DNA of 61,558 bases, counting the filler, from Hausera hauseri (Eukaryota): NCBI GenBank assembly GCA_046269625.1. It is 9 parts of 9 records of this genome, joined end to end, with 100 filler letters (N's around TTAATTAATTAA, not from the genome) between each part and the next. Parts side by side here need not be neighbours in the genome. Positions count along the whole stretch, not along the records: positions 19,917 to 31,030 come from JBJURY010124428.1; 8 more parts are not named here. The stretch is one strand, 5' to 3'. Position 1 is the stretch's first letter; each line of letters begins with the position of its first letter. Made by a program: the position numbers and the translations under genes. This document shows positions 8,325-52,089 of the stretch, in pieces. Below the pieces are notes generated by a model. That model saw only the letters and a program-made list of their open reading frames with translations, ran no database searches and was not told the DNA's origin.

Positions 8325-8362
8325 GGAGTTTTCTAGGGACTCTGCACTTCGTACACAAATAC

Positions 8363-9097: not shown

Positions 9098-10030
9098 AAA
9101 GCCACATTTCGTATACTGCAACGCCACGTTGTATGGCCAACTATGCGTACAGATGTACATGTCTTTGTTAAGGGATGTGTATCTTGTCAACAATATAAGG
9201 TTAATGAACACCTCAAACCACCACTTTATCACTTTCCTTGCACATCTCGTTTTGACACCATTCATTTGGATCTTGTGGGCCCTTTACAATCCGACAACGG
9301 CTATCAATATATCTTATCCACAATGGACCACGATTTTCGCTGGCCGGAAGTGTTCCTCTTCGATCAACCAACATCGACTCAGTAGCAGATGCCTTTATCA
9401 AAATGTAGATCAGCCGTTTTGGCTCACCACGTCATATAATAACAGACAAAGGTCCGCAATTTGAAGATGAACTTTTTAAATCTCTAGTAAAGCACCTGGG
9501 GATAGCCCATTTCCATACAACACCGTACCATCCCCAAGCAAATAATCTTCTTGAGAGATTTCACAGAACCATGAAGATTTCCTTGAAAATCTTGGCAAAT
9601 AACAATTGTAACTAAACCTCAATTCTTCCTCTTGTCCTACTCGGTTGGTGCAACATGGCATCCACCACCACAGGCTACGCTCCAGCTGAAGCTCTCTTTG
9701 GGACACCAATTCTTGCCATTTTCATCTCTCCAACCTCAATTAAAGCCCGTCAGATGAATTTATTCGTGCGTCACAGTCCCACTTTGCAGATGTAAACTCA
9801 AGCACCTTTTGCTGTCTTATATATAAAGATAAATCCTATATTCCAGAGGACTTATACTCAGCGAAGTTTGTATGGCTGAAGAATCCGTCACCTTCTGGTT
9901 TTCGGCCTCAGTACGTTGGCCCTTATAAACTACTCAAACTTTCCTCGCACACCGCTACTATTTTACGTAATAACAGACCTTAAAATATACACATTTCTAA
10001 TCTTAAGCCAGTATTCTTCGTTGACGATGA
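9098..10030 (+). pseudogene. Ty3/Gypsy integrase, disrupted
   Basis: HH..CVSCQ zinc site, [42 protein letters not shown]; several stops. Confidence 0.85.
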
Positions 10031-19320: not shown

Positions 19321-19322
19321 TC

Positions 19323-19495
19323 TGTATCGTGTAACTCGTCGAGAAAAACGTAATTCGAATTAAAAATTTCGTGACTCATTTTTCTCCAAGGCGGAAAATC
19401 GGGGTCCGTCTATGTGCCCGACTCGCCGGCGGGGGAAAGCCCGACCGTGTCCAACCGAATGGGCCGGAGGGCAAACGGTCGACGCTGGCACCACA
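19323..19495. mobile_element. 173-bp TGT...ACA LTR-like unit containing the conserved 109-bp GC-rich terminus (19387-19495)
   Basis: 19387-19495 is the reverse complement of 36336-36444 with 13 mismatches in 109 nt, no gaps. Flanks CATTC/TGGAC do not form a TSD. Confidence 0.75.
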
Positions 19496-19916: not shown

Positions 19917-20401
19917 GTACGTAATGTAATTGTTTGGTTTTGCTTATTCTCTGCATGCACTTGTACTATGTATTCAGATTGTGGTTTTAGTAAGTTGCAC
20001 TCTGTTTGATAAGTATTTATAAATAATGTTACAATTTGAATATTATATGTCGTTCGACAACTTATGTGTATATCGTAATTTTGTTTCTTCTCCACAAAGA
20101 ACACGATTGTGTACCGGTGCGCCGAATATTTGATAGATACGCTTTCCAACTCTGCTTTGGGTATGTTGCTCTCTGTAACAGTTTGAGTAGTGGGACTAAC
20201 CTTAGTAGTCGACTCTTTGGTAGTGGTTCCCGCTAAAATTCTCCAAATTTTATTTTCTGGATAGTAAGTTCGTAGTTGTATACTTGGTTTGTTAGGTCGT
20301 ACTTCATATAAGTCAATTTTTATTTTGAATTCTTGGTTCACGGATATTTTACAACATGGATGTTGCACACTTGCGGGAATAGAACAATATCTTATATTCA
20401 T
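19917..20401 (-). CDS. Post-integrase ORF fragment with Thr-rich stalk and fibronectin type III-like motif
   Basis: TTTKESTTKVSPTTQTVT followed by CNLLKPQSEYIVQVHAENK (FN3 signature L.P.T.Y.V.V.A.N); runs into gap. Confidence 0.5.
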
Positions 20402-21149
20402 GGTCGGTCAAATAGCGGCTTCGAAAGTGGTACTAATTTCTCAACTGACAGTTAGCTCAGTCCGGGCGTCTATCTGGATGCATTGCCTTGCCGTATTAAC
20501 TGAAATTCTCCGGATATTTTCACATAGTAGCTTTATATCTGGGTCAGTGAATCGTAGCATGTCGGCAGGTTTTATTCTCTAATGTCTGCTCCAAGCAGGA
20601 ATGACTAATTGGGATTATGGCTTTGTCTCGATGTAGACCTCGGATGAATCCGGTAAATATAGGCGATAAGTGGGATTATAAGTGCGTCAGAAATCTATGT
20701 CGCAACATTGAATATAGTCTCCAGGTTCAAAATAACATTTTTTCGCTTCTTTTGTTGTTACATCAAGTAAAACAATTTGAAATCTTCCGAAATTATGGTG
20801 CGGCCTCTAAGCCTTAAATCCAACACACACAGAGTCTGGCAAGTAATAATGAACAGTTATTGATTGTAATAATTTGGTATCTTCTTGTTTTTGAATTTCT
20901 TCAATTGTTGGTTTCTTTTCCGTTTTAGTAGCTTTCGATTTCAATCCGCTTTTCCGAATCTCATATATATCTCCTAGCTTAGATACATTGTGCCACCATT
21001 GAGTTTGTGTTCTCGAAATATAAGAAACAACTATTGAAGAAGCCTTGAACTCGCGTTGGCGTAAATTGTAAAGTTTATTGGGTCGTATCTCCGTCTTAAC
21101 AACTCTTTGCGTCGATACGACTTCTTCCTTTCCATTCTTGTTGATTTAT

Positions 21150-22285
21150 ATGGTGGTTGGCGTAACTCTGATAACTTCGTACGGTCCTCTGCCTGTACTA
21201 GTCAGTTTCAATGAGGTGCCTTTCCTGGCTACTGGATAATGTACATAAACCCAATTTCCTTGTTATAAATCGTGCAGTTTCGCGTTCTTATCATATTGCT
21301 TTTTAAACTGTTCTTAATACTCTTGAGATAACTCCTTAGCGATCTCCCAACATTTTTGTAATCGTGTCGGTAGCAATTTTGCAAAATTCTGTTCTAAATC
21401 CTCGGGATTGACTTTGTATGGCGTCATTTTTAAATCCGTGGGTAACACAGCTTTGCGTCCATACATCATCAAAAATGGTGTGAATCCTGTCACTGGGTGT
21501 GGGGTAGTATTAATAGCAAACTGAGTTCCTTCTAGAAATTCATCCCAATATTTTTGGTCTTTGGCTACTACCGTAGATAATATACGTATGACGGTAGCGT
21601 TCATTCGTTCGACCATATTGTTACATTGCGGATAATACGCGGTAGTAGTTAACCGTTCAATTTCAAATATCTTGATGACCTTCTCAAAGAGTTCACTAGT
21701 GAAATTTCTTTCTCGATCTGTCAGTATCTGCTCTGGAGGTCCATATCGACAAATGATTCTTCTTACTATACCTTCGGCTAAAGTTTCTGCCTTTTGATCA
21801 ATCAACGCTATTAACTATACAAAATTGGTTAATCGATCAATACAAGTCAAGATATACTTATTGTTCTTATGGGTCGTAGGAAGAGGCCCAACTATATCCA
21901 TGGACAAGGCTTGCATAGGTCTATCGGGCACATTAATTGGTCTTAATTCGGCCATGTAGTTTTTCGTCTTCTTTTGTTTCGTTGCGCATACTTCGCAGGC
22001 TTTTACCCAATTCCTTACATCAATAGGGATGCTAGGCCAAAAGTATTTATTCACTATCCTTTCTAATGTTTTGCGCCAGGACATGTGTCCTGCTAAATAT
22101 GAATCATGTTCCAACATTAGCACTTCGGTTCGTAAACCTTTTGGAATGACTATCAATTTCCTTCCTTTTCGTTCAAAATATAAAATGTTCTCGTTTCTCT
22201 TGTCATTTAGGACGCAGTATTTAAGCCCACGTCTGCGCAAATGTTTCGTTAACTGTCGACCTGTCGGTACGATATTTTTTGGCAA
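21150..22285 (-). pseudogene. Integrase (HHCC-DDE-GPY) of family A
   Basis: HDSYLAGH..CEVC, MDIVGPLP, ILTDRERNF, YYPQCNNMVERMN, GPYEV (~21180). Confidence 0.92.
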
Positions 22286-22429
22286 ATTCTATAATCTGGT
22301 GAATAATTTTATCTTTTCTTTGTTCTGAGGAAATTTTATTTGCTTTATCCACCGCTAAGGCGCGTTGGCAATCCAATATTGGTTCCAGTTGACTTTTCTT
22401 CATCACCGTAATTGCGCTCGTTTTAGTCT

Positions 22430-23600
22430 TCAATCTCGATAGTGCATCGGAATCTACATGTTTATTTTCTGGTTTATACATGTCGGGTTGTTTGCTCAGC
22501 CCTTTAAAGTCGTAACGGCTTTGTGATCAGTGACCATTATAATTTTCTGTCCGTATACATAAACGTTGAAATGTCGAAGTGCTTCTTTTACGGCTAGTGT
22601 TTCTAGCTCACTAACAAAATAATTTTTCTAGGCCTTCTTCAAGTAACGTCCTCCATAAGCAATCGGGTGTTCTAACTCTTCATCTTATCTTTTCTGCTCT
22701 AATTCATATCCAATGCCTTCTTTACTGGCGTCTGTCTTGATTATAAAGGGTAAGTTAAAATCCGGTACCGTAAAACAGGTTCGCTTGTTAATATCTTTTT
22801 CATCTCGTCGAAGGCTTTCTGTTCGACGTCTATCCATTTCAATTTAATTCCTTTTTTAAGTAGACGATATAAAGGTGCATTAATTTTTGACTAGCCTAGC
22901 ACACAGGTTGCGTAATATCTGCAAAGTCCTAGCCACTGTCTTAATTCTTCCTGGTTTTGTGGTTCTATATAGTCTGATATTTTATTTAGTAGTGACTTCT
23001 CTGGTTTCGATCCTTCTTCTTCAACTATATGGCCAATGTAGTATACTGCATTCTGAACCAATTTACATTTCTGCGGATTTAGTTTCAACCTTGCTTGTTC
23101 CAAACTCATCAGCATATGTTCAATGTTCTTTAAGTGTTCCTCTTCGGTCCTTGATGCTATCATCACGTCATCTAAATACGCGAAAGCGTGATCCAGTCCC
23201 ATTAACATTTTGTTCATCATTCTTGTAAATATGGCTGGCCCGGTAGTAATACCGAATGGCATGACATTGAATTCATAAATACCATTGTGTGTTTTAAATG
23301 CTGTCTTATAACGGTCCTCATCCTCGATCTCTACCTGCCAATATCCGGATTGTAAGTCCAGAGTGGTAAACCATTTTGCTGCTGAAAGTCGATCTAAAGC
23401 CTCTTTCACTGACGGTAACGGGAAAAATCTTTCATCATAAGATTATTTAAGGCTCTGTAGTCAATACAAAATCGATGTTTTGTGGTACCTTTCTTCTTAA
23501 CCATAAAGATTGGCAAATACCAAGATCTATAGCAGGACCTAATTATATCGGCTTTAAGCATTCGTTCAACTTCCTTCGTTATTTCTGGTCTTAGTGAATG
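22430..23600 (-). pseudogene. Reverse transcriptase + RNase H of family A
   Basis: RFCIDYRALN, FTTLDLQSGYWQV, KTAF, MPFG, YLDDV, KTDAS, ELETLAV, TDHK, DSDALSR. Confidence 0.93.
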
Positions 23601-24159
23601 TGTAGGGGGTACAAATTTGGCATTTTTTGGTCCTCTAAGTCTATTTCTTCGTTCGAACCAAGCTTTTTCTTGAGCGGAATAATCAATTTTAATGCTTTCG
23701 CTCTACCAATATCTTCTTCATATTTAGCGATAATCGATTTGTAGCGGAATAATAATTCGTAAAATCGACAATAAGATTCGGGAGGAAACTTAATTTCGAC
23801 ATGAGGTGGAAATTCAGCATACTTATAAGGCTTTTCATCAATAGTTATTGACGACACTCTATACGTATCTCCAACAGTAGTGTAAGCATAAAGCTTGACC
23901 GGAGTTTGTGCATTATTAGCTATTCTGATCGATACTCTACCGGAGTGTACTCTTGTTAATATATTTCTGAGTATTATATTCAGATCTAACGTATCACTTG
24001 GTTCAAAATATATCGGTTGATTGTCATCTTGCTCTATTTGGTCATAAATTATCATTTCCGTCCTCGGTGGAATGTCTTCGTCTACGGGTATCCATACCTC
24101 TCTAAATTTTTTATCCTTAGCGTTTTTCACGCCTTTATTTGGCCTGGTTTCTATTAACT

Positions 24160-24490
24160 TTCTTGTTTGTAAGTCAATCGCTATATTTGCTAGGCTTTTC
24201 AATAGATCACATCCTAAAACTACGTCATCAATTAATTGTTCCATAACTGCAAATTCGTTCTGGAAAAACTGTCCAACTATTTGGACTTCTGGATTCCATT
24301 TAAACATCGCTTTCGGTATTTAGCCAAAAGCTCCCGTACTTCCTGGATTTTTTGCGAATGGTGGATATAATTGTCCTCTTAGCGATTTAGGTATAGACTT
24401 GTTTTTAATGTAAGGCATTTTGGATCCTGTATCGATTAAGCCATAAACGTCCCAATCATCTGTAATGATTTTGGCGAAAGGTCTTCCTTC
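24160..24490 (-). pseudogene. Aspartic protease of family A
   Basis: YGLIDTGS (ORF 24320..24865) and DVVLGCDLL (ORF 23591..24307). Confidence 0.8.
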
Positions 24491-24939
24491 TATTACTGTT
24501 CCAAAACAGTTTGTTGCTACTTTTGGACGTTTAGTCGCCGATATTTTATGTCCATTGATTCGGATTTCTGGGGAGGATACTATATTCTCCGACAATTGTT
24601 TTAATTCTTCGTTTGGATACAACTCGTTGTTTTCTATGTGTAACTCTGCTGTTTCGTATGTACTAACTAATGGTTCTCGATTATTAGTGTGTAGTTCGGT
24701 GTTCTGGAAGGTTTTTAACCTTGGATTGTTCCAAACCGTTGATCTAATTTCTATATTCTGCGGTTCTCTCGGAATATCTTGGGACAGATTTGAACATTTT
24801 TGGACCATATATGGATTGTCGGTAACACATTTTCCGTAGGATCCCGTAACGTTTTGTTCATTCATAACGGTCTTCTACATTAATCATCCTTTTCCAGATT
24901 TCAGTCTGATATGAACTCATTGATCGTTTATCACAGTCT

Positions 24940-27008
24940 TCATAGATTGGAGCGGTGGGAGGTAGCAGGCAATGGCGCTTTAATGACAGAGTACATCTTA
25001 TGTCTGTTTATTCCTGAAAGTACTTCTCCTCCCTTGGGCTCGTCATCATCTGAATTATTTCTTCGTGTATTAGGTTTTGTAAATTTCCACTTGTATAAGA
25101 AAATAGGCCTCCCTTTTCGCTTGCGATTGTAATAACCGATATGGCGTTCTACGTCTGATTTCCATCTGTTCTGTTCGTATGCTTTTAAGAATTTTCCAAA
25201 AGGCGTTATGATTGCGGTCAGTATTTTACATGAAAATCCGATTAATGTAAATATTTCATATCCATTTATTACTGCTTGATGACTGCTTTAATCATATGTA
25301 TCACAAAATATGTCGCCAAGAATCCGGATGCGGCCTGCCTGAAGATCAAAAATCGTCCCCAAATTTTGTAGAGAATTTCTGTTGTTACTCTCTGATAATG
25401 GTTTACGCCAAATAATGATTCCCATTTAGCATGATATCGGGTATCGTCTATCACCGAGGCTATGGCTCGGTTTAATTTATGTGTTCGTTGTTGCGGAAAA
25501 GCGAGGAATTGTCTGAAGGCTTCGATTTCCTTAGGCTTGTATGTGCCTTTCGACCAGGTGTCTTGAAATTTATCGTCTGCAATTCCTTTCGTTAGGTTTG
25601 TTCCTGTTAATTTATTTGGAGCGGCAGTGATACCTCCATTTGGCAAACTAACCCACTCTGTTTCACTGCGTCTAAATATGGGCTTTCCTAAGCTGGCCTT
25701 ACAGTCTCTAAGGATGGTTGGTTGGGTTGAGTTATCCAATAGCACTCTCGTCAATGGCGTAGTTAACCTTGGAGTATTCTGATAAATAACATGGAGTTCC
25801 TGAATGCAACGTTTTTCTTCCACATTAATGGGTACATCTCTCTTTTCACATTTGTAAGTTATTAGTACTTCGCTTGTGACCCGACCGAAAATTCTCTCTC
25901 TCATAGGAATTATTGGAAAAGCCAATTTTGGGTTGGCATATATAATAGCCAATTTCGTCCTCATAATTTCAGTATCTAATTTGCAATCATTCATTATCAT
26001 TTTGTGATATAGTTCCGTTATTCCGACTTGCCCTTTATAATAGAAGTAATTGTCTCTGTTTTTTATGTAATCTTCAATTCGGACACCCTGCGTTTTTAAT
26101 TTGTATGATTTTGCATTTATTTCCGTTTCTGCGACGAAAAATGCCTCATAGTTAGTAGTGAACATCACTACGTCACAACGTGGGATTATCTCTTTTTTAA
26201 TGAATTACAGTCCATATTGATCTCAGATTAATATAGTGAGCGTAGGATGTTCTGATACGTCTTTGCGTATCCTTGAGATGGTATCTCATTTTCCACATAT
26301 CGCTTTCCGGTAGATTCATTAAACTTCAGTTCCTTAATTTTTTATAAAATTACAACTTCTTCCAGAAGGTGGTTCCCAGATTATAACAAAGCTTCTAAAA
26401 GCACATGTTCCATCTTTTAAATGACATTTCTGATTCTCAGTGTATAACTTAGTGACATTATGGAACATTACTTTCTGTGATCGCATCTCCGATTCGTAGA
26501 AATCTACGACTACCACATATGCTTGTAATCCTTTTCCGGTGCCATATTCTGCTCCGTAACAATGTCCACTATGCATATCTAACCTTCCGGCCACCACCTT
26601 GTACTCCCTAATTATCTTTCCTGGTTGCATTTCTAATTCCATACTATCCCATTGCACTCTTCCGGTCTCCTTAGCTTGTCTGCAATGCTGGCGTTCTAAG
26701 TTCATATGGATTAGCGGAGTTGTCGGTTTAATTATTGAGGAATGCTCTTGTACTAATCCACAATGAAAAATGCTACGTGATCGTCTCAGCATACATTCCA
26801 TTCCATCTAACGATATCAGTTCTTGTTGTTGGTACAGGAAGTAATTTTTCTCTCGTCTCCAACTTGTGTGATCTGGCATCTTTGCACATTTCCAGATCCA
26901 TTAGGGAATATCTCTGTCCTAGTGTAAACTTATCGCAGTCGTAGACGGTTACAGCGCCTATATGCTTTATTAGCATCATCAAGGTGAGTAAGCTAATTAG
27001 CAAATTTG
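24940..27008 (-). pseudogene. Chuvirus/Jingchuvirales-like envelope fusion glycoprotein (env), frameshifted; ends approximate
   Basis: Signal-like LLISLLTLMMLIKHIGA|VTVYDC..YSL.DLEMC; C..RRSRSIFHCG..EHSS; CRQAKETG; GHCYG.EY; CHLKDGTC..IIWE..C; NDCKLD; FGRVTSEVL..YKC; CIQELHV.Y; PLTRVL; C-terminal WGRFLIFRQAASGFLATYFVIHMIK..GYEIF.LIGFS.KIL.A TM region. This matches the chuviral G Cys/TM pattern as I recall it. Confidence 0.8.
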
Positions 27009-29872
27009 ATTCATTCTTCCGGCATCCCACGTCCGCCGTTGTCAAATTACGTAACAGATCGTCGAGTTTATTACTGGCCCGTCTGTCTTCTTCCTTGTCA
27101 AACAGTCTTGACCAATTTAATTCGCAGGGCAGTCTTTTTGCTGCTTTTCGTGCTAAACTTATACCTCTATTAATTTCATTTTCTCGATTAAGGTTTATTT
27201 TCATAGCTAGGTATAGTAATACTTTTCTCAATTCCTCGTTGGTGTTCTCTACCATGATCTTTTCGATTACCGATTCATCGGTTAAGTTACTTTTCGATAG
27301 TTTAAAACGTGAACTTCTCATCATTCTAGCTGCATCGAAAATTATCTTTTCTCTGTCATCTAGTGTGTCACCTCGAAGGCTCAAATAATTTCAAATTCGT
27401 ATTAAATTCTTCATTAACTCGCTTAATTTTTCATTATCTGTGCTGAAAGTCGGAATTCGCATATGTCTCAATTCTTTAAGCAATTCTCCATTGTAGTCCA
27501 CTTCTCGCGTTTTCTTAGGCCTACCGGTTGGACGTTTTGGCCTTGGGGCTTTAGTTGCTATTTCACTCAGTGTTACTAAATTTATATCGTATTGTTCCTT
27601 GTCCTCATCCGTTTGAAAATACTCGAAATACATTGCAGCATCTCGGACTCCCATGATTTGTCCGACGCATTGCTCTGTCTTAGCCTTACGTGTGGCTTCC
27701 TCTTTCGTCTGTTCGTTAGGCACTATTGCTACTATACGATTTGTTTCGCCGGGAATAATCCCGACATCTATTAAGTGTTCTAGATCGTCGAGTATTCTAC
27801 CTCTAAAGTAAAATCTGTAATTTAGCTCATTTGTTCCGCCATTATTTACTAACCATTCTCTTACGTTCCTTACATAGGAATATGTAGTTAACTCATTCTT
27901 TTTCGTCCATCCATTCGGACGGTACCATTACGTTCATCGTTACCTCATGTCTAGCTTTTAAGATTTTAGAGTATTTCCTTATTAGAAGTTTCAGCACCGT
28001 ACTATAAATGGCATTCTCACTAGATAATTTAGTTAGTGTCGGAATAAGTTGTCTTAACTTACTTTCAGTAATGTTTACGTTAATTAATTAGATTAAATCC
28101 TTTTCAGTTAGCGCCGAATCCAAGAGCATCTCCACATTGAATCTCCTGTCCTGCAAACGTTCCTGTTTCGTTTAGTTGTACTGGAATCACGGGTTTTTCG
28201 GCAAATATTGCGTCGAAGTATGCATCCCATTCGGGTTTGTTTCCACTAAGGCTGTATTCGTCCTTTGCACATTTTCTCGAATTTCTTTCAATCTGAGTTG
28301 TATTTCCTTCATCTGTGTAGTACGGAAACCTATTCCGTTTCCATAGGCATACTGAATCAGTTTCAGTAATTCACCTAATTCATCAAAATCGATGAGTCCT
28401 TTTTGGTGATAATCTTTTAATTCAATAATTACATCCTTTTGCCATCTTTGTACGAATTCTCGCTTGTTCTTAATTTCTGATTCGGTAAAAGCATATTTAT
28501 TTCGGTATATTTCGAATTTTTTCGCTAGTTCATCCAGCTTCGTTGCTCTTTGTTTTGTTCTGATGCACCTTTCTTCTACTTTCTGTAATTTGGGCACCAA
28601 CTGCCTTATCTCTTCATCATTAATCTCCGCCATTTCTACTAATAAGTAGGCTAGCCCGTACATCTCGTCTATGTCTTTTGAGTCAGAATTCGGTGCATCC
28701 AACAATTTCTTTACGAACTTAGATTCCTGAAAACTAAGATGTTGGTTATCTCTTATCATTGTCAACTTGGTATGGAAATTTTGATCTAATCCGGCCCTTC
28801 ATTCTTGTGGCTTATGCAAAAATTTTACAGCGTCCGTTAAGGCGGCTCGATTTTCCGGACAAATGTCTAAGATTTCAATATCTTGGACATAGATCTCGTC
28901 GATAGGTTTGTCAGTATAATGTTGAACTCCTTCTAGTCTGACATTTCTTAATCTTGGGTAAAAATTGCAAGTCATATTTCGCTTTTCTGCAAAATTCGTT
29001 TCCTCGACCATTTTATAAATCTCTTCCAGTATCATTGCTTCTTGTTTCTTTTTCATAAATTTTAGTCGTCGTAATATTGTATCTAGATTACGTGCGCTTT
29101 CTTCTAGCTGTTTCTTTATAGAAGGCTCATTCTCCAGAATTTCCTTCTTACGGTTTACCACTAGTTTACTTGGTCGCATTACTAATTCGGACCATTCCGA
29201 CAATTGGTTGTCGATCATTGGCTTTGCAATTATAGCCTTATTTAACATCTTATAAGCATTCTTTAACTTATCATCTCGTCCTTTTATAAAATCCATAATC
29301 CGGCTGACATTGTTAAACTCATCCTTATATTAGTCAAATTCTGTGATGCAAGCCTTTACTACGTATTGAGTCTTCTCGTGGTTCGGGAACATAATTCGGT
29401 TTTTCAAGCTACAAATCTGTCTTCGCTTTTCGTTCTCCATTTTAATTCGATTTTTTAAATTTGTATATCGTTTAGGGATAGCAAATGCGATTTTTATCAT
29501 CTCCCTTAAGGTAGGGATATCTATTTGGTCTATACCCAATATCTCTAAATCGACATCACTTTGACTACTAACCGGTTTTTTTCTAAGTCGATTAATTATT
29601 TCACAACGAATTTCATCTATCATACGTTCCAGGTTACGTACTACTCTCTTCAGTTTTGGATTTGCTTCTAAGGTAGACAATAGCGTTTGAGCCTTAGCGA
29701 CTTTTACGTCGACACTCTCTTCATTTTTGCTCCATCCTTCTGAAAATTCAACTCCACTTTTAATCCCTGATTCTAATTCATGTTTCCATTTTAACAATGT
29801 TTCAGATAATACCTCTTCAGGTTGTCCTAAGTCGATTGCTTCCTCAAGTTTCCTTTCACTATATAATTTCAA
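27009..29872 (-). pseudogene. Unknown charged/helical accessory region of family A between gag and env (ORF fragments 29330..29872, 28799..29296, 28187..28765, 27391..27723, 26773..27384)
   Basis: Homologous peptides in copies at 36773-37260, 44880-51000 and 55200-55500 (e.g. YVVKACITEFD vs LIEACILEFD; QLSEWSELV vs QLKEWSELL; EQCVGQIMGVRDA vs QQCVGRVMGVQDA). Confidence 0.7.
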
Positions 29873-30201
29873 ACTTTTATACAGTTCTCCGCATACTGTT
29901 GTTCTTTTCCCGATATGTCCACTTGATCGCTAATCTGCTTAAGCCTTTCTAAATTTCGCTGTAGTATTTCTGGATCGTGACATCTAATTCTCATTTTCTT
30001 CAATTCATCGGCGTTTTTCCATGAACGTCGGACTTTCCACTTTTTTGGATCAAAATCCTCAATATTTCCAGTCTCTTTCTCACTAATGGGAAGTGGGTAG
30101 ATCTCGTTAATTTCATTAGTTGACTATTGTAGATTCTTTTATTTCGGTAGGTGTGAATGGATTGATTTTTGGTGTAGTTAGGCTATGTTCTGCGTCGCTT
30201 T

Positions 30202-31030
30202 CTACAAAGATATCCGTTTTTTCGTTTCTTCTATTTTCTTTCTAGTTATTTGTGACCGTGAACGACTACGGCCTCTATTTTTCGTCATTTTAAGTTTTAA
30301 TGGCTCCATAAATTCTTTTTCTGCTGCATCGTAATCGGCAGGTTTATCTACTTTTTCAACTGTAAACTCAGGCTCTGCATCTAAGTCGACTTCTGTCGAG
30401 GTGTCTAGTTTATCGGGTAGTTTATTACTCGTCGGAACACTCTTTTTCCGTGTCATATCAATTCGCTTGGGTGCTACTGCACGTTCATATTCAGTTTCTG
30501 ATTCTCCTAAACCATGATACACTTCTAGTAGTCTTAACTTATCTCCATATTCTTTTCTGGCCATCAGAATTTGTGGATTAGTAGTTTTAGACTGAGCGTC
30601 TAGGAAATTTCGCAAGTCTTGTATATCAATGATAGTACCTGTGTTTGCGCGAACACCATACTTTACTTCTAAATTTTCGTTAATTCCAATCATACTGGTT
30701 TTATTAGGCTCAGTAAATAAAACACTACGTGGGTTTGGACATGACCTTGAAATCTGTCCTTCTTTTCCGCAAGTGAAACAAACTAAATTTCCATTTCTGC
30801 CGACTCTCTGGCGGCTATCTTCGTTTACAGGTGACTTAGGCCGATTCGAACTTCTACTGTACTGGTTCTGTGCGCTATCCTTGCTTCTTCGGTTATCATT
30901 ATTTCGATTATCAGCATTACGATTCGAATAATCAGGTCCTTTGTAGTTTCCTCTATTCGAGTTAAAGTTTGGCCTGTTCATATTTCGGTCATTATAGTTT
31001 TGGTTAGTCCTGTAGACGTTATTGTTACTT
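30202..31030 (-). CDS. Gag C-terminus (Asn/Arg-rich + degenerate CCHC knuckle) of family A
   Basis: CFTCGKEGQISRSCPNP knuckle after an N/R-rich tract. Confidence 0.8.
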
Positions 31031-31130: not shown

Positions 31131-33160
31131 CATTAAAACAATGGATAAGATCGAGAAAAGGCTTTGTTGGGAATTTGAGAAAGAGGGGACTTGTAAATTT
31201 GGGAATAAATGTAAATTCTTGCATAATAAAGAAAAGAAAAATGAAACACGAATATGTAAATACTATCTGAATGGAAATTGTAGAGACGGAGAAAAATGTC
31301 ACTTTACTCGTGAATTGCCGTTAAAAAAGGATAATTTTAAAAAACAAGAAAAAACGTTCTATACACTCCATACAGAAGAAAGAATAAACAAAGCGGAAGA
31401 CGTAGGAGACGATATTGAGGCACGAGTTAACACTTACGTAATTCAACGATCAGAAGAGACAACGAAAGAAAATAAAATAGCTTTACGAACTGTAGACGTG
31501 TGGTTGTAGAACGGAGAGCAGAAAGTAAAGGTATGCATGTTATTGGACGATGCGAGCACAGAATGTTTTGTAAAACGCTCTATTGTAGAACAGCTGAAAT
31601 TAGTTGGTAGTCATAAAAGTGTATATGTTATGGTAGTGGGTGGGGAGACAACAAGGTCGAAAATGGAACGAGTAAAAATGATCTTACGAAGTAAGAACAA
31701 GAAGGTTAACATCCAATTTGAAGCGTTGGTTCTCCATGATCCGACTGGGAAAATGATGGCCGTGAATTGGGAGATGAAGAAGAACAAATGGCCGCATTTG
31801 GGAAATATAAAGTTTGCTGCTCAAAAATCGCTGAAATCAGTTGATGAAACAATCGGTGCAAACTATATGTATTAACATAGATTTATAAAAGAAATAGCGG
31901 TAAAGACAAATAAGCAGGTAGCAAGATTGATTCCACTTAAATGGACGTGTGTAGGGATAATCGGGAATGAAAAGAAAAAGGTAAGAGCCAACTTCGTTAG
32001 ATCATTCTGGACTAGAACCGAGGAAATGCAAGAAGATTGGAACAGACTATGGGAAGCAGAACAAGGATTCCAGGAAAGATCTCAGTTAAATAGCTGAGAT
32101 GTCGAGTTATTGAAGAGAGTGATTAGCGGAATAACATATAAAAAAGAAAGTTTTTATTGTTAAGTTACCTTTGAAGACAGAGAAACATGCAGACGTCAGT
32201 GATCCTGATTCGTCATAGATGGCGAAAAGTGGATTGGATCTATTAATAGAGAAACTGGATAAAGATATTAGAGTGAAATAGGAGTACAATAAAGTCATCA
32301 ACGAGTATGAGGAAAAATTGTATATAAGAGAAATATCAAAAGAAGAGCAAAAGGAAACGAAATGGTTAATGCCACATTTTCCCGTAATCAAGTTTGATCG
32401 CGATACCACAAAATGTCGGTTAGTATTTGACGCAGCTGCAAGGAATAAAGGGAAATACTTAAATGACTTCTTGGAGATCGGCCCAAAATTATAACTTGAA
32501 GTAGTTGACATTTTACTCCGAATGCGTCGCAACAATAAGTTTCAATCTGTGATATACATGAAATGTTTCTCCAAATTTTAGTGGATCCAACAGATAAAAA
32601 ATACTTACGATTTTTATGGAAGAAAAATGATAAAAAAGTTACCTACGAATTTAACAGATTGGTGTTCGGACTGAACTGTTCTCCCTTTTTAGAACAATCA
32701 GTGTCTATATTTAATACGGAAGGATTTGAAAAAGTATACCCGAGAGCAACAGAAACCATAAAGTACTCTACGTGTATGGATGACTGCATTGACTCAGCTC
32801 TAACAGGAGAGATAACAGAACTATATCATGAATTAAATGTAACATGGAATAATGCATGAATGGCTCCACACAAATGGGCAACGAACTCAGAACAACTTAT
32901 CACCGATATCCCATGCAACAAAAGATCAATGGAGTATAATGTATCAAAGAAGAACACATTGGCCACAAAGACGTTGGGAATGAAATGGAAGGTAAAGGAA
33001 GACAAATACGTATTCGATAAAAGAGACGTTACCGAACAAACGACAACGAAAAGGACCTTACTAAGCGCAGTCGCCAAAATATACAATCCCCTGGGATTTC
33101 TAAGTTGTTATACTATAATCGGTAAAATGATAATACAAGAATTGTGGATGCAAGCTTTAC
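31131..33160 (+). mobile_element. Degenerate BEL/Pao retrotransposon (zinc fingers - PR - RT - peptidase A17 region)
   Basis: LLDDASTECFV protease, TIGANY, HFPVIK..TTKCRLVFDAAA, MFLQI..YLRFLW, RLVFGLNCSPF, CMDD, KWATNS, TKRTLLSAVAKIYNPLGFLS (Pao signature). Confidence 0.9.
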
Positions 33161-36772: not shown

Positions 36773-38767
36773 TTTCTTGATACGAACTTCGATATTTTCA
36801 TACTGTTTAGGCTCGGTAGGTGCAACTCGAATTATCTCCATCAGAGGTGCAATGTCTACTGAGTCCACACCCAACATTTCTAAATCATTTTCATTTCGTA
36901 AATTGAATGGTTTTTCCATCAGATGAATAACCGTAGCATGCTTAATTCCGTTCATCAGTCTTTCCTAATTACGTTTTACTCGCTTCAATTTTAGATTTGT
37001 TTCTCGTGCAGCTATTAATTCTTGATCTTTACTATTTTATCTTCGATTGTATTTTCAGTTTTAGTCTATAATTATGGAACATTAATTTAACTTCTTATCC
37101 ATAAAATTTATTCATTTTTCCATTTTTCCAACAAGTCCTGAGGTATTTCTTTAGGTTCATCTAAATTGAATGGTTCGTCTAATTTTTCTTCATTGTAAGA
37201 CATTATTTCTTATACATTCTTTCTGCGAGTTGTTGTTCTTTGCCAGAAATATCTACTCGTTCCGTTATCCTTTTAAGTTTTTATCCTCTGATTTCCCTCT
37301 ATTTTCATTGTTTGTGTCACCTTGACTTTTTATAAATCGTTGTAAATCATGTATTTCAATAACCATACTTGTATCACCACGAATACCGTAGGTTGCATCT
37401 AAATTCTCATTGGTTTTAATTAGACTATTTTTGCTAGGTTCATCAAACGAAATACTTCGAGGAATTGGGCATGATCTTACTATATGTCTTTCCTGACCGC
37501 ATGTATAGCAGATTAAATTGTCATTTCTGCCGACTCTTTGGCGATCATCTTAATTTATAGGTGACTTCGACCTACTCATAACTCTGTTATTACTTTGACT
37601 TAGCCAACCTTGAATATTATCCCCATTATACAACTGTCGTTATTTCGGTTATCATTATATCCATTTCCATTATCAGGGCCTCAACTATTTTGGTTACTAT
37701 CTGCATTATAGTTTGACTTATCAATCGAATTATTCGCACTTCGATTATTACTGTAATTTCTATTATCATACAGGTTGCTTCGATTATTGTTATTACCGTT
37801 CTGGTTTCTATTATCATAACTTCTATTACTGTTATTAAATCGTCTATTGTGTTGGTTATGTTTATCATTTCTGTTTCTATCGTTGCAGTCATTTTCATTA
37901 TTATTTGTATCATTTCTGTCATTTTGTTTCGTATATCTGATTAATGCCATTTGTAATCTTGAGCTAATTGCAAGGTTTTGTCTAAATTTTCTGGTCGGCT
38001 AAAATCAACTGTTTTATCAAATCTCTAGACCAAATACCATTAATTAGTTGAGTCGCCATCACGACGTGTAAATCCAGATAAATTGCCTTTTCTGCGGCAT
38101 TATGTTTTGCATCAATTTTTGCTTTAGTTACATTAGTTTTCCTTAGAGTACTTACATAACTATTCACAAATTTCTTTAATGCAAATGAAAATTAAGTTAC
38201 CCCTGAGTTCAAACTTCTGTTGCGTTCTATTCTGAAAAGCCACAACTTTTTGTTGCGGAGTCTCCTTCGGTAATAATTTTTGATTTAAAGCTCCTACCAG
38301 GAAGGATCAAGGTTTCTTTTCACCATCAGTGAGTTCACTATTGGCGTCAGCAGCCAGTTCTGCTTATTTAACTTACTGGTTTTATTTCTCTTATCATGAA
38401 TTTTAAGTTCTATAGGTTGCGCAGCAACAGTTAAGTCTATATCGGTCAATTTATTTCTGGTTAAATTTGTTTCAGACAATGAGCGTCTGTTGAATACTTT
38501 GTCTTCTCTATAAACCTTATTGCGCGCCTCGCATAAATTTAGATTTTCTTTACCGTTAGGAATTAAATTCAGTTTGTCGTATGACGTCTGTCTATCAATA
38601 TTAGTTACCTATTCGATTTATTATCGTTACTAGATTCTGATTTTCTGATATCCCAGATTTTAAATTCGTCAGTAAATCTTACGATTACTTAGTTGATGTG
38701 GTTGGTCGGCAGCACTGAGACGTGTTAGTTTAGCTCTCAAAAGTTTAGCTAGGTGCAAACTGTCTTG

Positions 38768-44155: not shown

Positions 44156-46614
44156 AAAGTGAAAACATACGAAATGATGTGAATATGAAAAAAGTTCTAA
44201 AAATGATTCAATTTATTCATTTAATAAATTTTTATTTGTAATACTGATTTTTCATGGAGATTGAGATAAATTTTCATTGTTTGTTAATACCGATGCAATT
44301 TTGTTTTTGATTAGCATGTATGCATTTGATGTTGTCGCGGTGGTGGATCTAGATTTGTGCACTTAACTCCTCACGCTTATCGAATGTGGATTTTGTCAAT
44401 TTTATCAACTACTACTGCACTTCCGTCATTTTCTTTTTCAGTATCGTATTCTGCTCCAGTGCATATTCCTGTATACATGTCTGATTGTCCGACTGCTACT
44501 TTAAAAGATCTAATTCTTTTTCCTTGTTGCATCTCGAGCTTTATGCTATCCCATGCTAGTCTACTAGTTTGTCTTGTTTACAGTGTTGTCTTTCCAAATT
44601 CATTGGAATCGATGGAGTTGTCGGTTTTATTTTCGATAAATGCCCATGCATCTGTCCACAATGGAAAACACTACAAGATCTACGTAACACACATTCTACC
44701 CGTCTAACGATATTAACTCCCGCTGTTGATAGTGCATAAATTTTTCCTTGGTTTCTAATTTGTGCGGTCTAGCGTCTTTGCACATTTGTAAATCCCTCAA
44801 TGAGTACTTTTGGCCAAGTTTGAATTTATCACAGTCGTATACTGTCACAGCTCCCTTTTGTTTTACGAACTCCATCAATGTTAGGAAATTAATTGGCCAA
44901 TTTGAGTCATTTCCTCAATTATTGCCCTTTGATGTCAGATTCCTTACTACGTCTTCGATTCTGCTAACATTAATACTACAGGATGGTCTAGACTGGCAAT
45001 CGTCTTCTTTTCCAAACAATTTAGGTCAATTTATTTCACGGGGCAGCTTCCTGACTGCTTTCTTGGCCAAGTTGGTGGCTTTATTAAGTTTGTTTTCCCA
45101 CATTGGGTTCGTTTTAATAACCAAGTATGGCAGTTCTTTTCTTAATTCTTTTATTGTATTTTCTACCATGATTTCTCAATCATCATTTCGTCGGTCAGAG
45201 TACATTGTAGCATCTTGTACACCCATGACTCGTCCTACACATTGCTGTCTTCTGACTTTATGTGTAGCTTCTTCTTTTATGTCCTAATTGGCGATCGTAA
45301 CTACTACATGATTTGTTTCGTTTGGGATAATTCCAACATCTATTAAGGATTCTAATTCATCTAATATTCTTCCTCTGAAATATAGTGGATAATTTACGTC
45401 GCTTTTAGCCGTAGTTTTACGTCTCTAACGCATGAGGCCGCTGTGCACTCACATTCCTCTTTATCCATCCATTCAGACCACACTTTTACTTTAATCGTCA
45501 CATCGGGTTTATCCCTTAAGATTTTAGCACATTTTCTTCATAAGAATTTCGGCACAACACTAAAAGTCGTGTTTTCGCTAGATGACTAAGTTAAAGTAAG
45601 GATAAGTTGTCATAGTCTATTTTCAGTGGTATTTACATTAAGTAGCTCAATTAAATCTCAGTTAGCGCTGGATACAAAACCACTGAATTTCCGATTCTGT
45701 GAGTACATTCTCATTTCGTGAAGATATACTGGTGTTTTCGGATTTTCTTCCATTATTGCATCCATATATGCATCCCATTCTGGATCGTTCTCATTTGCTG
45801 GAGGTCCGTAGTCAATAACTGAAGTATATAGTTGCCGTATTAGATGTGAATTTTCTCGTATCATACCAAGTCTCCTTTGTATCTCAGTTATCCGTACTGT
45901 TTGAAGCCCGATTCCATAATAGTAGATATGTTGTAGGATAATCAATAATTGGCACATTTCGTCTGCTTGACTAAATCCTTTTCCTTGATAAGTAGTCCAT
46001 TCTGATGTTAATTCGTGTTTCTATCTTGACGCAAATTTTGATTTATTGGCCATTTCTAATTCCGTAAACTCGTACTTTTTCCTATAGGTTTTGATTTCTC
46101 TAGTTACCTTTTCCATTTCAGTTTTCCTTTGGTTAGTACGAATACGGGTTTTCTGGGTATGAAGTATCTGGCTTTGCAATCGCCTCATTTTCTGATCACT
46201 GATTTCGGTTATTTCGTCTAATAACAATGTTAATTTGTCCACTTCCTTTAACGTTTTAGATTCCGAATCGATTTATTCAATTAGTTTTATACCAAAATTA
46301 GATTCCTCAATGATAAACTCGTGATCGATCATTGTTTCTATTACGTCAGTGTGCCATTTCTGATCTGATCCTGGTATCTAATTTGAAGGATTGTGCAGAA
46401 ATTTTAACGCACCTTCTATAGAATTTTTGTAATCGGAACAGGTATCTAATACTTTTAGTTCTTGTGATGTAATTTCACTTAGGGGTTTAGTTTTCAGATA
46501 CTGGATTCCTTCTAAACGAATATTTCTAGTTTTCTTCAATCATTTTGTAAACTTCACTCAGCAACGATATTTCTTCGTTTCTGTTCATAAATTTCAGTTG
46601 TCGTAATTAATTCG

Positions 46615-48388
46615 TGTAGATTAGATGGGTTTTCGTTCCAGATTTATCGGATTACATAAACAATGTCAAATTCTTCTGATCTGTATTAAATTGTACACAC
46701 CTCATGGTGCCATGCTCGACTATAGCAGGTCGAGTTCAATAACACCATAATACAAATTTGGCATCGACTAGGAATTTCGTATATTTTATTTCTGAAATCT
46801 GAGATAAATCCTGCATGTTTGTGTACGAATTTCTCACAAGGAATAACCTCCAACAAACCTTTAGCTAAACTTGTTTGAACTTTACCGGTGCATAAAATTA
46901 TCTTCCTATCGCTTGGAATCGTTAGCAATTTAATAGTTTTGACAGTTTTTTCAGGTATTCCTCACTAAAAAACGATGGATCAACAATGACAATGCCAAAT
47001 TGATTGATTAAATTTTCTGGAACTTCCGTTGGAAATTTGTAATCATATTTATCAAACATATATTTGTTAAATCGATTGTCACGTTCAAGTAAAATCGAAT
47101 AGATGCTTTTCTTCTATAATTTCAAATGCAGAACGAGACACCTCACAAACCACTTTCGATATTTCAGTTTTATTGACATTACTGCATTTACCAATTTTTC
47201 CGTTATTTCATCATCATACCGAAATTGTGATAATTGCCGATTTCCTTTATCTGTTTAGCACCGGAATTGTCATGTACCTCTGTCCTGTGATTTTCGGATA
47301 AACTCTGTTAGAGCTTTCAAAGTTTCTGGAGTTAAATACAAATCATCGTCATAAAAAATCATTCTGAAATTTTCAAGTCAAAAGTTTAATTTAGATTAAA
47401 CGTGTTTATTAATTTAAACATGTAGATAATTTAAATTTTTTTCGTTACATTCAAACGAAACGTCCATTTCTTTTGAGCAAATAAACGCGAAAAAAGAAAG
47501 AGAGCAAATCGACTATATAGCGAACTCCGTACTTGTCCACTATTGCACTAACCATGATAAAAATAAATATAAAAAATCACGGCAACGTTTCGTGGGTAAT
47601 AAATTTTTTAACAAATGTATAATTAACGATTTATACTGTATAGCTTTTATGGACAAAAATGTTTTTAAAGTCAATCGTTGAAACAATGGCATTCAATGCA
47701 GTATTTTATCAACAGTACCGATTAGATCTTTAATCCATTAAATGCATCTGTGGAGATTGTCAAATTGACATTGTTCGACAGATAGAGAGATTCGAGTTTA
47801 CTCAACAACGAATACGTTTTGGATTCGGTAAATTTCACTTTGCAATGACGAATTAAGAGTTGTTTTATTCAAATATACGACGGAACAAATTGGGTAAAAT
47901 TATCTGAAGATAACGAGGAAATATAAAAATTTTGATTGGTAGCTGAGTTTTTCGACGGTTGATGAGATTTTGTCGGGGAGATTGTTTCTTCCTGGACTAA
48001 TACAGACTAAAGTTTCTTTAAGACACGTCTGAAAAAAATGGGACAAATAATATCTGGATATGAATTGGTATTGAATACATTGTTAAGTATGACTATGACT
48101 GCTTTGATAATATTCATTTTTATATCGATTCAAACGTTATTTAAGCCACTGAATTTACTCGGAACTTTGTGATAAAAGAACTCTGCCGTCTCTGAAAACA
48201 ACTTCGGGTGATGGAAATAGATTCTCATGCCATTCACATAATTTTATTCTTGTGGGGTGATCAGTTGTCTGCCAATTGAGCAAAGACGAAAAAGGCGAGG
48301 GCTGAGGAGGAAAACATACCGGTCTAGCGGTGGGGAGAGCCACGTTTAACACCGAAATGGCGTCGACACCTCCAACCACGGCACCACA
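46615..48388. mobile_element. 1774-bp TGT...ACA cassette with 5-bp TSD ATTCG carrying an EEF1AKMT1-like gene
   Basis: ATTCG(46610-14)|TGTAGA ... GGCACCACA|ATTCG(48389-93); family A accessory-region sequence lies on both sides. Confidence 0.88.
46780..47362 (-). pseudogene. EEF1AKMT1: EEF1A lysine methyltransferase 1 (N6AMT2)-like, disrupted
   Basis: Manual translation gives MIFYDDDLYLTPETLKALTEF, LSQFRYDDEIT, LLERDNRF, YDYKFPTEVPENL, FGIVIVDPSFFSEEYLKK, KIILCTG in order, matching N6AMT2 motifs LS..ALAAL.EF, LSQFWY, EYD.RF, YDYN.P, FDIVIADPPYLSEECL, KILLCTG. Confidence 0.8.
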
Positions 48389-48593
48389 ATTCGCGTGTGA
48401 TAGAATATCTGTTTCTTCTCTCATAGTGTCCAAATCCCGCATGATTTCATTCATTTCTTGTTTCAGTATCGGTTTGACATTTGGATATTCCTCTATACGA
48501 TTAATTATTATTCGGGTTAATTCAATCAACAATTCGGACCATTCTTTTAATTGGTTAGCAATTATCAGTTTGGCCACCTTTGTTTTATCCAGC

Positions 48594-50265
48594 TATTCAT
48601 CCTTTCATATGGAACTTTCAGTGGACAATGAGTGACAAAGGGCCAATGCCAGAATTCGGCACGGTAGCGAAAATCATCGATCTTATGCAACATTTCTTTA
48701 TGGCGATGAAGAAAAACCAAAAGCACGTCATTTATTATCGAATATAATAAATCTGTCAATTCCCTGTTTGGTGTTTTGTAATTGCTGTAGTCCTTTTCCA
48801 AATCTTTCTGAACCAAAAACGCATCGATGTCGGTAATATAAACCATGATATCTTCAAGAATAATATCCTGAAATCAACCATAAATTTCTTATTCATAATT
48901 TTCACCGCCTCAACGAATACTCCAATAATGGAAAATATTTTACTCTGATTATTATTGACGATTAAAGAATTTCGATATGCTTCAAACGAGGGATTTCCGA
49001 ATAAAATCTAAGAATTTGTGCTGATCGCCTTTTAATAAGTTGTGCTCGCCTCTGATCATCTTTTAGTCGAGGCAAATTGCGGCAATTACGTTGATATTCT
49101 TCACCGAGTGGTCGTTGGTTCTGAACAAGATCATAATAATGTGTGTTGCTTGTCAGTACACTATCCGACGAATAATAATTTAATAATCTATAGTTATCAG
49201 TTTCAATTTTCGTCGCGCGTTCTCTAAAAAAATTCATTACCAATTCTTCAACTTCTCCAACGGAAGGGATAGTCACAGATAGCTAACTTGATCTACCGAA
49301 TCCGTCAACTACGACTGACTGTTCATTAACCGACTGTAACGAAGGACAGACTTCTCGTAGATCGTTGACGAACGGTTTGAAATATTTAAGTTTCTGACCA
49401 GTGAGTCCACTGTCTGTACGAACAGTCAAATTAACGAGAAACGATGCCGATTGGAGCACCCGTAAAAGTGACTTGTAGATCAGACTGTTGCCAGAAATAA
49501 TCAATGATCGAATAGGAATAGAATGGAACAAGACTCCAAGATGGAAAACATACGACAGTCCGTTAATGCTGAGATCCAGTTCATTTAACGATAATCTGCG
49601 GATCGTCTGCAGCAAATTGGTATCGGCCTTCACGACAACGTCACAATGCTGGACGCTGAATGGATCAGGAATTTTCCGACAACTCGTTTTAAACATATCC
49701 AAACTTATATCCATCAATTTGACAAATACAATTGCATATTCCGATGTTGATCAGTAATTGTACGTTTGTAACAATCGTTCCATATGATTATTGTGTACCG
49801 TTGCTACATTTGCAATTCCTGTCTAATCCACTCGGAATCGAACTGAATATCATGTGTAAAAGTAACCTTGGCCTATAAATTTGAACCGAACTCTTGAATA
49901 AAATTTTTTGAATTTCGAAATTTAACACTTCGACTGGAATCCTGATTTGCGTCCACATTTGTTTTTTTAGTGGATATTTCAATGCGCTCATAATTATCAT
50001 TTCTGATAAATTTCGCTACATATAAAAATCTCTGTCAAATTGTTATTTCTGCCGTTATGTATTCATTTAAACTATTTTTTGTCCAAACATAAAAAAACGC
50101 CACAACAAACGGCACACATAAGGGTCAACAAATCCGGCATTTTCAGTTACGTACGACACAAAAGTTGGAAGATCAGACCCAACTATGGATCCGACGCGGC
50201 GGCAACGGACGCCCGGCCGTGCCTGAACAAATGGGCCAAAGGCACCGTCCGCTGTGGGCACCACA
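48594..50265. mobile_element. 1672-bp TAT...ACA cassette with 5-bp TSD CCAGC carrying an NXF1-like gene
   Basis: CCAGC(48589-93)|TATTCATCC ... GGGCACCACA|CCAGC(50266-70). Excision restores minus-strand AAAATGCTGGATAAAACAAAG = KMLDKTK, homologous to KMLNKAI in ORF 28799..29296. Confidence 0.88.
48650..50000 (-). pseudogene. NXF1: Nuclear RNA export factor NXF1/TAP/Mex67-like (RBD-LRR-NTF2L), disrupted, no UBA domain seen
   Basis: WTQIRIP (cf. WFKITIP, RBD); LNELDLSINGL..IRSLIISGNSL (LRR); LVMNFF..RLLNYYSSDS and YQRNCRNLPRLKDDQRRAQLIK..EIPRLKH (cf. [29 protein letters not shown]); FSIIGVFVE; SIINDVL (cf. CIVNDEL). Confidence 0.75.
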
Positions 50266-52089
50266 CCAGCATTTTGTGGTAATCTTTTAGTCTGTCGTCT
50301 GGTCCTTTATAAATCCCATAATTTGTTTGATATAGTTAAACTAATTTTTATATTCGTCGAACTCCAAGATACACGCTTCAATTAGAGCTTTTGTTTCTTC
50401 ATTATTTAAATTCATTATTCGGTTTCTTATGTTATAAATTTTTAATAGCTTGTCGTTTTCTTTCTTGATACGAACTTCGATATTTTCATACTGTTTAGGC
50501 TCAGTAAACGCAATTTCCATCATCTCCATCAGGGTTGAGATATCTACTGCGTCGACACACAATATTTTTAAATCATTCTCGTTTCGTAAATTCCATGGTT
50601 TTTCTTTCAATCTGTTCATATTACGGTTTACTCGTTTTGATTTCGAATTATTTTCTAACGTTGCTATTAATTCTTGAGCTTTAATTATTTTCTCGTTGGT
50701 TATGATCCCAGTTTTGGTCATAATTCTGGAATATGAATTCCACTTTTATCCACAGATTTAATTCATTTTTCCACTTGTCTATCAAGTCCTGAGTTACCTC
50801 AATGCTGTTCCTAGCCAGAAATATCCACTTGTTCAGTTATCATTTTAAGTTTTTTTATGTTTTGCCGTACTATTTCTGGATTCATCGGTGCGTCTCCGAT
50901 CTGTCTTAGCTCATTGGCATTTTACTTGGCTTCCTGATTTACCACATATTTTTATTGAATTTTTCAGATTGTTCTGTCATCCTCGCTAAGAAGTAAATGG
51001 CATATTTCGTTTATTTCATTTGCTGATTCAGTTGGTTCCTCAACAGTAATTGCCGTATTAAAACTAAGTTTCACGTCGCATTCTTCAAAGATTTCAGTCT
51101 CTTTTGCTTTCTTTAATTTTCTTTAGTCATTAAGGATCGTGAACGGCCTTTGCGTTTCCGTTTTATAGATGGGCTTCGACCTCTATTTTTCGTTATTTTA
51201 AGTCCTGGTGGTTCCATAAACTCCCTTTCGGCTTTGTCGTCTTCATTTCCTTTCTCCACGTTTTTAGTTGTATACTCAAGTTCCGCGAATAAATTTACGC
51301 CTATAGATGTTTCTTGTTTATCTGTTTTATTAAGTGTTTTATTTACTATGGGGATATTCTTTTTTCTTGTCACATCGGTTCGCTTCGGCGCTATGGAGTA
51401 CTCATATTCGGTTTGTGGCTCTACAGACTGTTGTACACTTCCATTAAGGACAACTGATTCTTATATTCTTTTCTAGCTTTTAGAACTCGCAGATTATTAG
51501 TTTCTCCTCGTTTTCTCGGTATATCTTCCTAAGTCTTTCATTTCAGTAACCATATTTATGTCCCCTCGGACACCATATATTGCCACGAAGTTTTCGCTAG
51601 TCTTAATCGCACAAGTTTTATTAAGCTCAATGAAGGATACTCTTCATGGATTCGGGAATGACCTTGCTATATATCCTTCCTGACCACACGTATACCATAT
51701 TAGATTGTAATTTCTTCCGAGTCTTTGTCGACCATCTTCATTTATATGTGATTTCGATATACTCATATTTCTATTATTGTTCTGGCCCCACAGACCTTGT
51801 CCATTATTCTCATTCTGTCGACTATCATTATTTAGATTATTATTATTTCGATTTCCATCATCAGAGTTTCTACAACTATTTTGCTTTGTATCTGCATTAT
51901 AGTTTGACTTTCCAGTGGAATTATTCATATTCCGGTTACTACCGTAATTTCTACTATGCTATCGGCTATTTCTATTATCACTATTACTGTTTTGGTTTCT
52001 ACGTATTATAATAACTTCTATTACTGTTATTAAAACGTCTATTATCTCGGTCTCCATTATCGCTTCGGTTTTTATCGTTGTGATCATTT

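Follow-up and report, generated by a model that had tools for sequence, protein, structure and literature searches.

The 61,558-nucleotide stretch of Hausera hauseri DNA analysed here (the window) consists of nine contigs joined by artificial N44-TTAATTAATTAA-N44 spacers. One contig, at positions 19917-31030, is a single retroelement on the minus strand, truncated at both contig ends. Read 5′ to 3′, it carries a gag zinc knuckle, a long region termed X, a signal-like peptide, an envelope-type glycoprotein (env), protease, reverse transcriptase (RT), RNase H and integrase. The original prediction, made from the sequence alone, had given this order as gag knuckle, unknown open reading frames (ORFs), signal, glycoprotein with transmembrane (TM) stretch, protease, RT, RNase H and integrase, and it is borne out by motifs and by Pfam and PDB matches. 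The element is present in the span first proposed for it, 21150..31030, but continues below 21150 to the contig end; there the integrase frame runs for ~400 further codons, a part that had not been noticed. The reading is split into ~20 stop-free pieces across three frames, and the window copy is dead and cannot encode a polyprotein. It fails the uninterrupted-ORF filter used for intact gB-type errantiviruses, a failure that concerns the copy and not the family. The features of the element, in reading order, are as follows; P numbers denote related proteins, and Burro is a planarian element described below.

30202..31030, minus: 3′ part of gag, an N/R-rich stretch and one degenerate zinc knuckle; 5′ gag lies beyond the contig end
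28000..30200, minus: charged part of X, 33% E/K/R/Q in three pieces, at the position of the Smc/MATH region of Burro
27720..27990, minus: candidate ubiquitin-like domain (Pfam ubiquitin E 0.047, PDB ubiquitin E 0.6, both below significance)
27510..27545, minus: GRP motif seen in the sequence, which we take to be AT-hook-like
27040..27390, minus: helical stretch at the position of the Bcl-2-like domain of Burro (predicted model, mean predicted local distance difference test, pLDDT, 53)
26944..27000, minus: internal signal-like peptide (hydropathy 1.94), ahead of the env start motif YDC (26946)
25270..26946, minus: env, a mononegavirus/chuvirus-type (gB-like) fusion glycoprotein (PF24664), with stops and frame changes inside
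24450..25270, minus: env tail and spacer to the protease, longer than in relatives; diverged family contigs cover 30/30 bins
24150..24460, minus: aspartic protease (DTG at 24433; blastp to P0004 E 2e-15)
23831..24103, minus: conserved protease-RT spacer domain in the place of the dUTPase-like domain of Burro (24-29% with P0002 and P0004)
22520..23650, minus: RT and RNase H (YLDD at 23178; RVT_1; PDB)
21100..22288, minus: integrase with H2C2, core and GPY motif at 21187 (Pfam and motif)
19917..21100, minus: post-integrase extension in the integrase frame, with five stops below 21100; the contig ends before any TM stretch

Pol, envelope and the region ahead of it

The pol region is of the Ty3/gypsy (Metaviridae) type, as first proposed, in its RT class, its protease-RT-RNase H-integrase order and its H2C2, core and GPY integrase features. 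RVT_1 matches positions 22891-23442 (E 4e-33), the RT carries YLDD and LDLQSGY motifs, and its top PDB matches are Ty3 RT (E 5e-34 and 3e-33), with the next classes at E≥1e-25. The integrase is matched by H2C2 (21815-22288, E 9e-19) and rve (21314-21814, E 2e-5), and the RNase H piece at 22688-22843 gives a weak blastp match to relatives. For the spacer domain between protease and RT, a PDB search gave no dUTPase match.

Env is matched by PF24664 on 26334-26900 (E 3e-11) and on 25269-26204 (E 4e-29), which bears out the predicted similarity to viral fusion proteins. The ectodomain is flanked by a predicted signal and a TM-like stretch (25334-25278), both hydropathy peaks, and the hydrophobic stretch at 27000-26944 is in frame with the upstream piece 26773-27390, as had been claimed. 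A hydrophobic stretch in the signal position is also found in 7/10 relatives at a threshold of 1.6, and by eye in the other three. The family assignment, together with the available text of PMC13524379, suggests that the window env belongs to the class III fusion proteins.

Upstream, the gag knuckle at 30780 has the form CX2CX4QX4C, with Gln in place of His; its region matches P0009 (blastp E 6e-6), and the window gag is 38-58% identical to three other copies in the window. X comprises ~1,000 codons (about 30200-27000), for which Pfam gave no match at E<0.001. Its charged part is likely helical and is conserved between copies, with an excess of third-position differences. An atlas search with the X piece 28190-28798 gave no usable match, and profiles of X from four copies, run against 153 collected proteins, recovered only the env start and one short match (E 0.006). 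A profile of the ubiquitin-like stretches of two relatives has 27720..27990 as its top site in the window, at a non-significant E of 0.93, and GRP motifs similar to that of the window precede env in P0004, P0009 and P0151. For the helical stretch at 27040..27390, Foldseek places Bcl-2 folds at ranks 2-7 (E 1.3-2.4), from a model that leans toward Bcl-2 because it was built with Bcl-2-like relatives; hhalign against these relatives gave 0.6%, a fold comparison of the model by VIA gave Z≤4.7, and the stretch has no Pfam match and no profile match to relatives. In the relatives, a Bcl-2-like domain lies directly ahead of env (P0006, E 1e-3; a stretch of P0001, E 7e-3). MATH, BIR and ankyrin domains had no Pfam match in 19 pieces of the truncated element, and relative P0151 has Ank_2. 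As a separate observation, residues 100-300 of P0018 form a globular-looking stretch before env that is unlike the X of other relatives.

Related copies, polyproteins and published elements

Three further copies occur on other contigs of the window:

44404..52009, minus: copy 2, gag, X, signal and 5′ env, ~66% nucleotide identity, interrupted by two inserts
36776..37621, minus: copy 3, gag and start of X, truncated by the contig end
54381..55521, plus: copy 4, gag and start of X

Copy 2 had been put forward (as 44380-52089) as a second example of the gag-accessory-glycoprotein architecture; the order gag, accessory region, signal and env holds, but only the first third of env is present. Between copies, third codon positions differ by 0.47-0.57 and second positions by 0.24-0.37, alike in gag, X and env, and the copies have diverged under purifying selection. 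The proposed test by the ratio of nonsynonymous to synonymous change succeeded in part: there is a synonymous excess, but synonymous sites are near saturation, 5/8 comparisons are not computable, and the alignments used favour conserved stretches. Contigs of run X1 contribute 34,943 pieces over 30/30 bins of the element, mostly 80-95% alike, and 3,579 diverged pieces fill 30/30 bins of the env-protease junction; this run gives no independent support because it may be the source sample. X1 was the one sequencing run listed as containing the element, and the listing included no RNA run.

A HMMER search with a 311-aa env piece against 1.84 billion proteins returned 234 matches at E≤0.001, the best at 34% identity; a word-index search with env among proteins of 546-2000 aa found nothing. 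The nine best relatives (E 1e-52 to 2e-39, 28-34% identity, 748-2855 aa) are long ORFs in which Pfam finds a protease after env in seven and RT in three, with a DTG after env in an eighth. Five distinct relatives (P0002, P0008, P0009, P0020 and P0011/P0153, the last two forming one cluster counted once) join knuckle, env and protease in one ORF, which supports the polyprotein that had been proposed, the window copy itself being broken. Spacing is colinear with these proteins: env measures 528 codons in the window vs 535-544, and the distance from protease to RT is 357 codons vs 341-344. The nearest proteins found are 33-34% identical in env and 46-47% in RT. Tandem aspartic-protease domains, some after integrase, occur in P0001, P0003, P0004, P0005, P0009, P0011 and P0151, the last with up to six DTG motifs. 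In NCBI, the retroelement polyprotein P0002 bears the label of a hypothetical protein from Flavobacteriaceae, probably because animal DNA ended up in a bacterial bin.

An env tree was built by a quick method from the 60 best of the 116 eligible matches together with the window. It places the window in a 23-row set (SH-like approximate likelihood ratio test 96) to which every env-before-pol polyprotein in the tree belongs; most of the remaining 38 rows are stand-alone proteins of ~650 aa, and one integrase-then-env protein and one BEL-type protein are also among them. In the RT tree, the window and five RTs from the env-selected set form a group (97/98), and the two phylogenies, which the original prediction had named as a check, agree. 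The BEL-type relative P0041, with DUF5641 before env, falls outside the window env clade. Anakin, a mosquito BEL/Pao element reportedly described by Dezordi in 2020, is said to carry a chuvirus glycoprotein; it resembles the window element in the capture of the same glycoprotein family by a long terminal repeat (LTR) element, but its pol is of BEL/Pao type, whereas the window RT is Ty3-type and the BEL element of the window lies on another contig.

The closest published layout is that of the planarian Burro/GYPSM1, whose single ORF is described in the available part of PMC6431247 (Arkhipova and Yushenova 2019) as Gag with CCHC knuckles, Smc, MATH, ubiquitin/SUMO-like, BCL2-like, env, protease, dUTPase-like, RT, RNase H and integrase, with env in frame between gag and pol and matching mononegavirus fusion glycoproteins. 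The window element shares the CCHC knuckle, the long accessory region, env before pol, the protease, the spacer domain, RT, RNase H and integrase; weak ubiquitin-like and then Bcl-2-like signals, both below significance, fall ahead of env in the same order. Unlike Burro, it shows no MATH, BIR or ankyrin match and a single degenerate knuckle, and most of X is unmatched.

Gypsy elements with a GAG-ENV-POL order and a gB/chuvirus-like env have also been reported from Nematoda, Bryozoa and Platyhelminthes (Chary and Hayashi, eLife, PMC13524379, as far as its text was available), and the window element is like these HSV/gB-type errantiviruses in its Ty3/gypsy pol and in the type and place of its env. 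The published elements were selected as intact, whereas the window copy is decayed. Nematode NERV metaviruses likewise have a flipped env/pol order, with a glycoprotein captured from an RNA virus (Sacco et al. 2022, as cited in the available text of PMC13524379). By eye, the window env is nearer to the flatworm and insect rows of the available supplement of PMC13524379 than to its nematode rows. The motif YQESDF is found in six of the nearest relatives and in two Schmidtea elements of that supplement, a pointer to the flatworm group; the exact motif is absent from the window env. The order gag-env-pol and the glycoprotein type are not new, because both are in PMC6431247 and PMC13524379 to judge from the parts available, and the earlier suggestion of a new order and an independent lineage is not supported, the same layout having been in print since 2019. 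The present element adds one more divergent family in an animal, apparently with many old copies.

The post-integrase tail and interpretation

The post-integrase extension is the part of the element for which no published description was found, and it carries more weight than the known layout. A fibronectin-III-like domain (20167-19919; Pfam fn3 E 0.038, weak) closes the window tail. A profile of the tails of three relatives, built without the window, has a single good six-frame site, at 20089-19931 (E 7.6e-5). The counterpart of the tail in the relatives (E 8e-5) is a second protein, of signal-ectodomain-transmembrane build, with which their polyproteins close: in the relatives that run well past integrase (P0002, P0004, P0151 and P0018), a signal-like stretch and a further downstream hydrophobic stretch are present in 4/4. 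Searches with the joint tail profile returned Tie2, neogenin, Dscam, contactin, NCAM2, EphA2, Lar and fibronectin in 16/18 rows (best E 0.0045), proteins that share fibronectin type III (FN3) domains. The predicted model of the tail has seven strands (pLDDT 63), and a word-index search with the tail piece found nothing. These matches suggest that the fibronectin-like tail likely belongs to a second surface protein. Such a tail was not found in the literature searched, the Burro section of PMC6431247 does not mention one, and the words "fibronectin", "Bcl", "ubiquitin" and "Burro" were not found in the available main text of PMC13524379; Grohme 2018, figures and supplements may mention it.

Taken together, it is highly probable that the contig holds a decayed Ty3/gypsy copy of the published gag-env-pol (Burro-like) kind, the intact form of which was likely one polyprotein and likely included a second membrane protein. 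The order, the homologies and the one-ORF relatives are established; from the layout and from known proteins, the topology, processing, particles and attachment role may be pictured as follows. The polyprotein would comprise Gag, X, a class III fusion protein, protease-RT-RNase H-integrase and the second membrane protein. The internal signal peptide would send the env ectodomain into the endoplasmic reticulum (ER), and the env anchor would bring the chain back to the cytosol, leaving pol cytosolic. A second signal after integrase would export the fibronectin-III ectodomain, with its own anchor, and signal peptidase and the element protease would cut the chain into its parts. Particles may then bear the fusogen together with another surface protein, whose likely role is attachment, and may travel from one host cell to another. 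More tentatively, and with considerable doubt, such elements might be two-glycoprotein viruses. The class III fusogen would precede pol and a host-like FN3 protein for attachment would follow integrase, so that attachment and fusion are split between two proteins as in herpesviruses and paramyxoviruses, while the ubiquitin-like and Bcl-2-like modules of X might keep the producing cell alive. If a fibronectin-like membrane protein were general in this class, it would be a candidate for the means by which elements with gB-type fusogens choose their target cells.

Several observations weigh against this reading. The likeness to Burro was drawn from its published description rather than from a sequence comparison, and the ubiquitin-like and Bcl-2-like assignments in the window are below significance. 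The window env is a long branch in the quick tree, and the RT tree has 9 rows only, chosen through env. The spacer from the WGRF motif to the protease motif is 308 codons vs 130-194 in four relatives, making the env-protease spacer 110-180 codons longer; no single run X1 record spans this junction, and copy 2 stops in the first third of env, before pol, so that it cannot test the env-pol link. No LTR self-match, primer site or target duplication was found on the contig, where the element is cut at both ends. Read in the integrase frame, the window tail shows no clear signal; a different frame contains one hydrophobic stretch. The anchor of the tail would fall beyond the contig end. A fold search with the tail model gave no match, and nothing significant was found with the 27040..27390 model; the low confidence of both models means that these results exclude no fold. 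The host-type aminopeptidase gene in the window (below) places the host only as an animal.

The alternative that survives best accepts the same element but has env and the tail protein act inside the cell or at cell contacts, in particle anchoring or cell-cell fusion, with no extracellular particle. The one-ORF layout would tie pol to the ER membrane, and a furin-type R-x-[KR]-R motif is absent from the three stop-free env pieces; however, gB-type env proteins do not always keep the furin site and their ectodomains retain the trimer fold (PMC13524379, available text), and env is under constraint. We consider this role unlikely, if still a serious contender. A lesser chance attaches to the idea that the element picked up the fibronectin-like tail as a fragment of a host receptor gene, and that this is not a working part. 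The FN3 scores are weak and the genome holds LTR-like inserts carrying pieces of host mRNA, but the tail keeps to the integrase frame, family contigs of run X1 extend over it as over the remainder of the element, and three distant relatives have matching tails in the corresponding position.

That two nested elements are present, a gag-X-env element with an unrelated gypsy pol inserted behind it, is very improbable. The longer env-protease spacer, a low-cover spot within the junction (24757-24793) and the lack of pol in copy 2 would fit such an insertion; all parts lie on the same strand, though, and the repeat between env and pol that was to betray a nested pol was sought on the contig and no repeat pair was found. 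Over most of the junction, diverged contigs of the family overlap one another, and the window tail matches the tails of the same relatives whose env is nearest. Because the relatives are intact single ORFs of the same order and the RT groups with the RTs of the nearest-env polyproteins, in agreement with the env tree, pol does not appear to be a nested element. Hardly credible is a passive endogenous chuvirus glycoprotein inside an ordinary gypsy element, for although PF24664 is a viral family and such insertions often lie beside gypsy fragments (PMC10084718, available text), the nearest relatives are retroelement polyproteins (stand-alone ~650-aa proteins enter the match list only from E 9e-15), the env tree places the window among env-before-pol polyproteins, and copy 2 has the same junction with a synonymous excess, which upholds the original view of an element architecture rather than a chance viral insertion.

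Inserts and other elements in the window

Of the two inserts in copy 2, that at 48594-50265 (minus) is 1,672 bp long, has 5-bp direct flanks, starts with TGTGGTGCC and ends with TA, and carries an intron-free NXF1-like piece (NXF_NTF2 E 3e-8). The other, at 46615-48388 (minus; 1,774 bp, TG...CA, 5-bp flanks), has the same 9-base head and holds scraps that, by eye, we presume to be leucine-rich-repeat-like and EEF1AKMT1-like. This head recurs at 17077-19495 (minus), where an aminopeptidase N frame of 760 codons without introns (Peptidase_M1 E 9e-50) follows 136 nt later; the frame is possibly cargo from a host mRNA, carried behind the head of an LTR. Over most of its length, the aminopeptidase shares at most ~30% identity with that of any animal listed. 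Where copy 4 breaks off, a different gag with knuckles followed by a protease-like stretch occupies 55521-57446 (plus), likely a nested gypsy element.

At 31132-33213 (plus) lies a BEL/Pao fragment (RT, Peptidase_A17), preceded by two CCCH zinc fingers (E 2e-12). A protein-primed DNA polymerase B with an endonuclease VII motif, which we take to be Polinton-like, is found at 3072-4442 (minus). A C-terminal piece of PSME4 (4742-5185, E 6e-7) is located upstream of another gypsy RT-RNase H-integrase region (7593-9744, plus) on the same contig.

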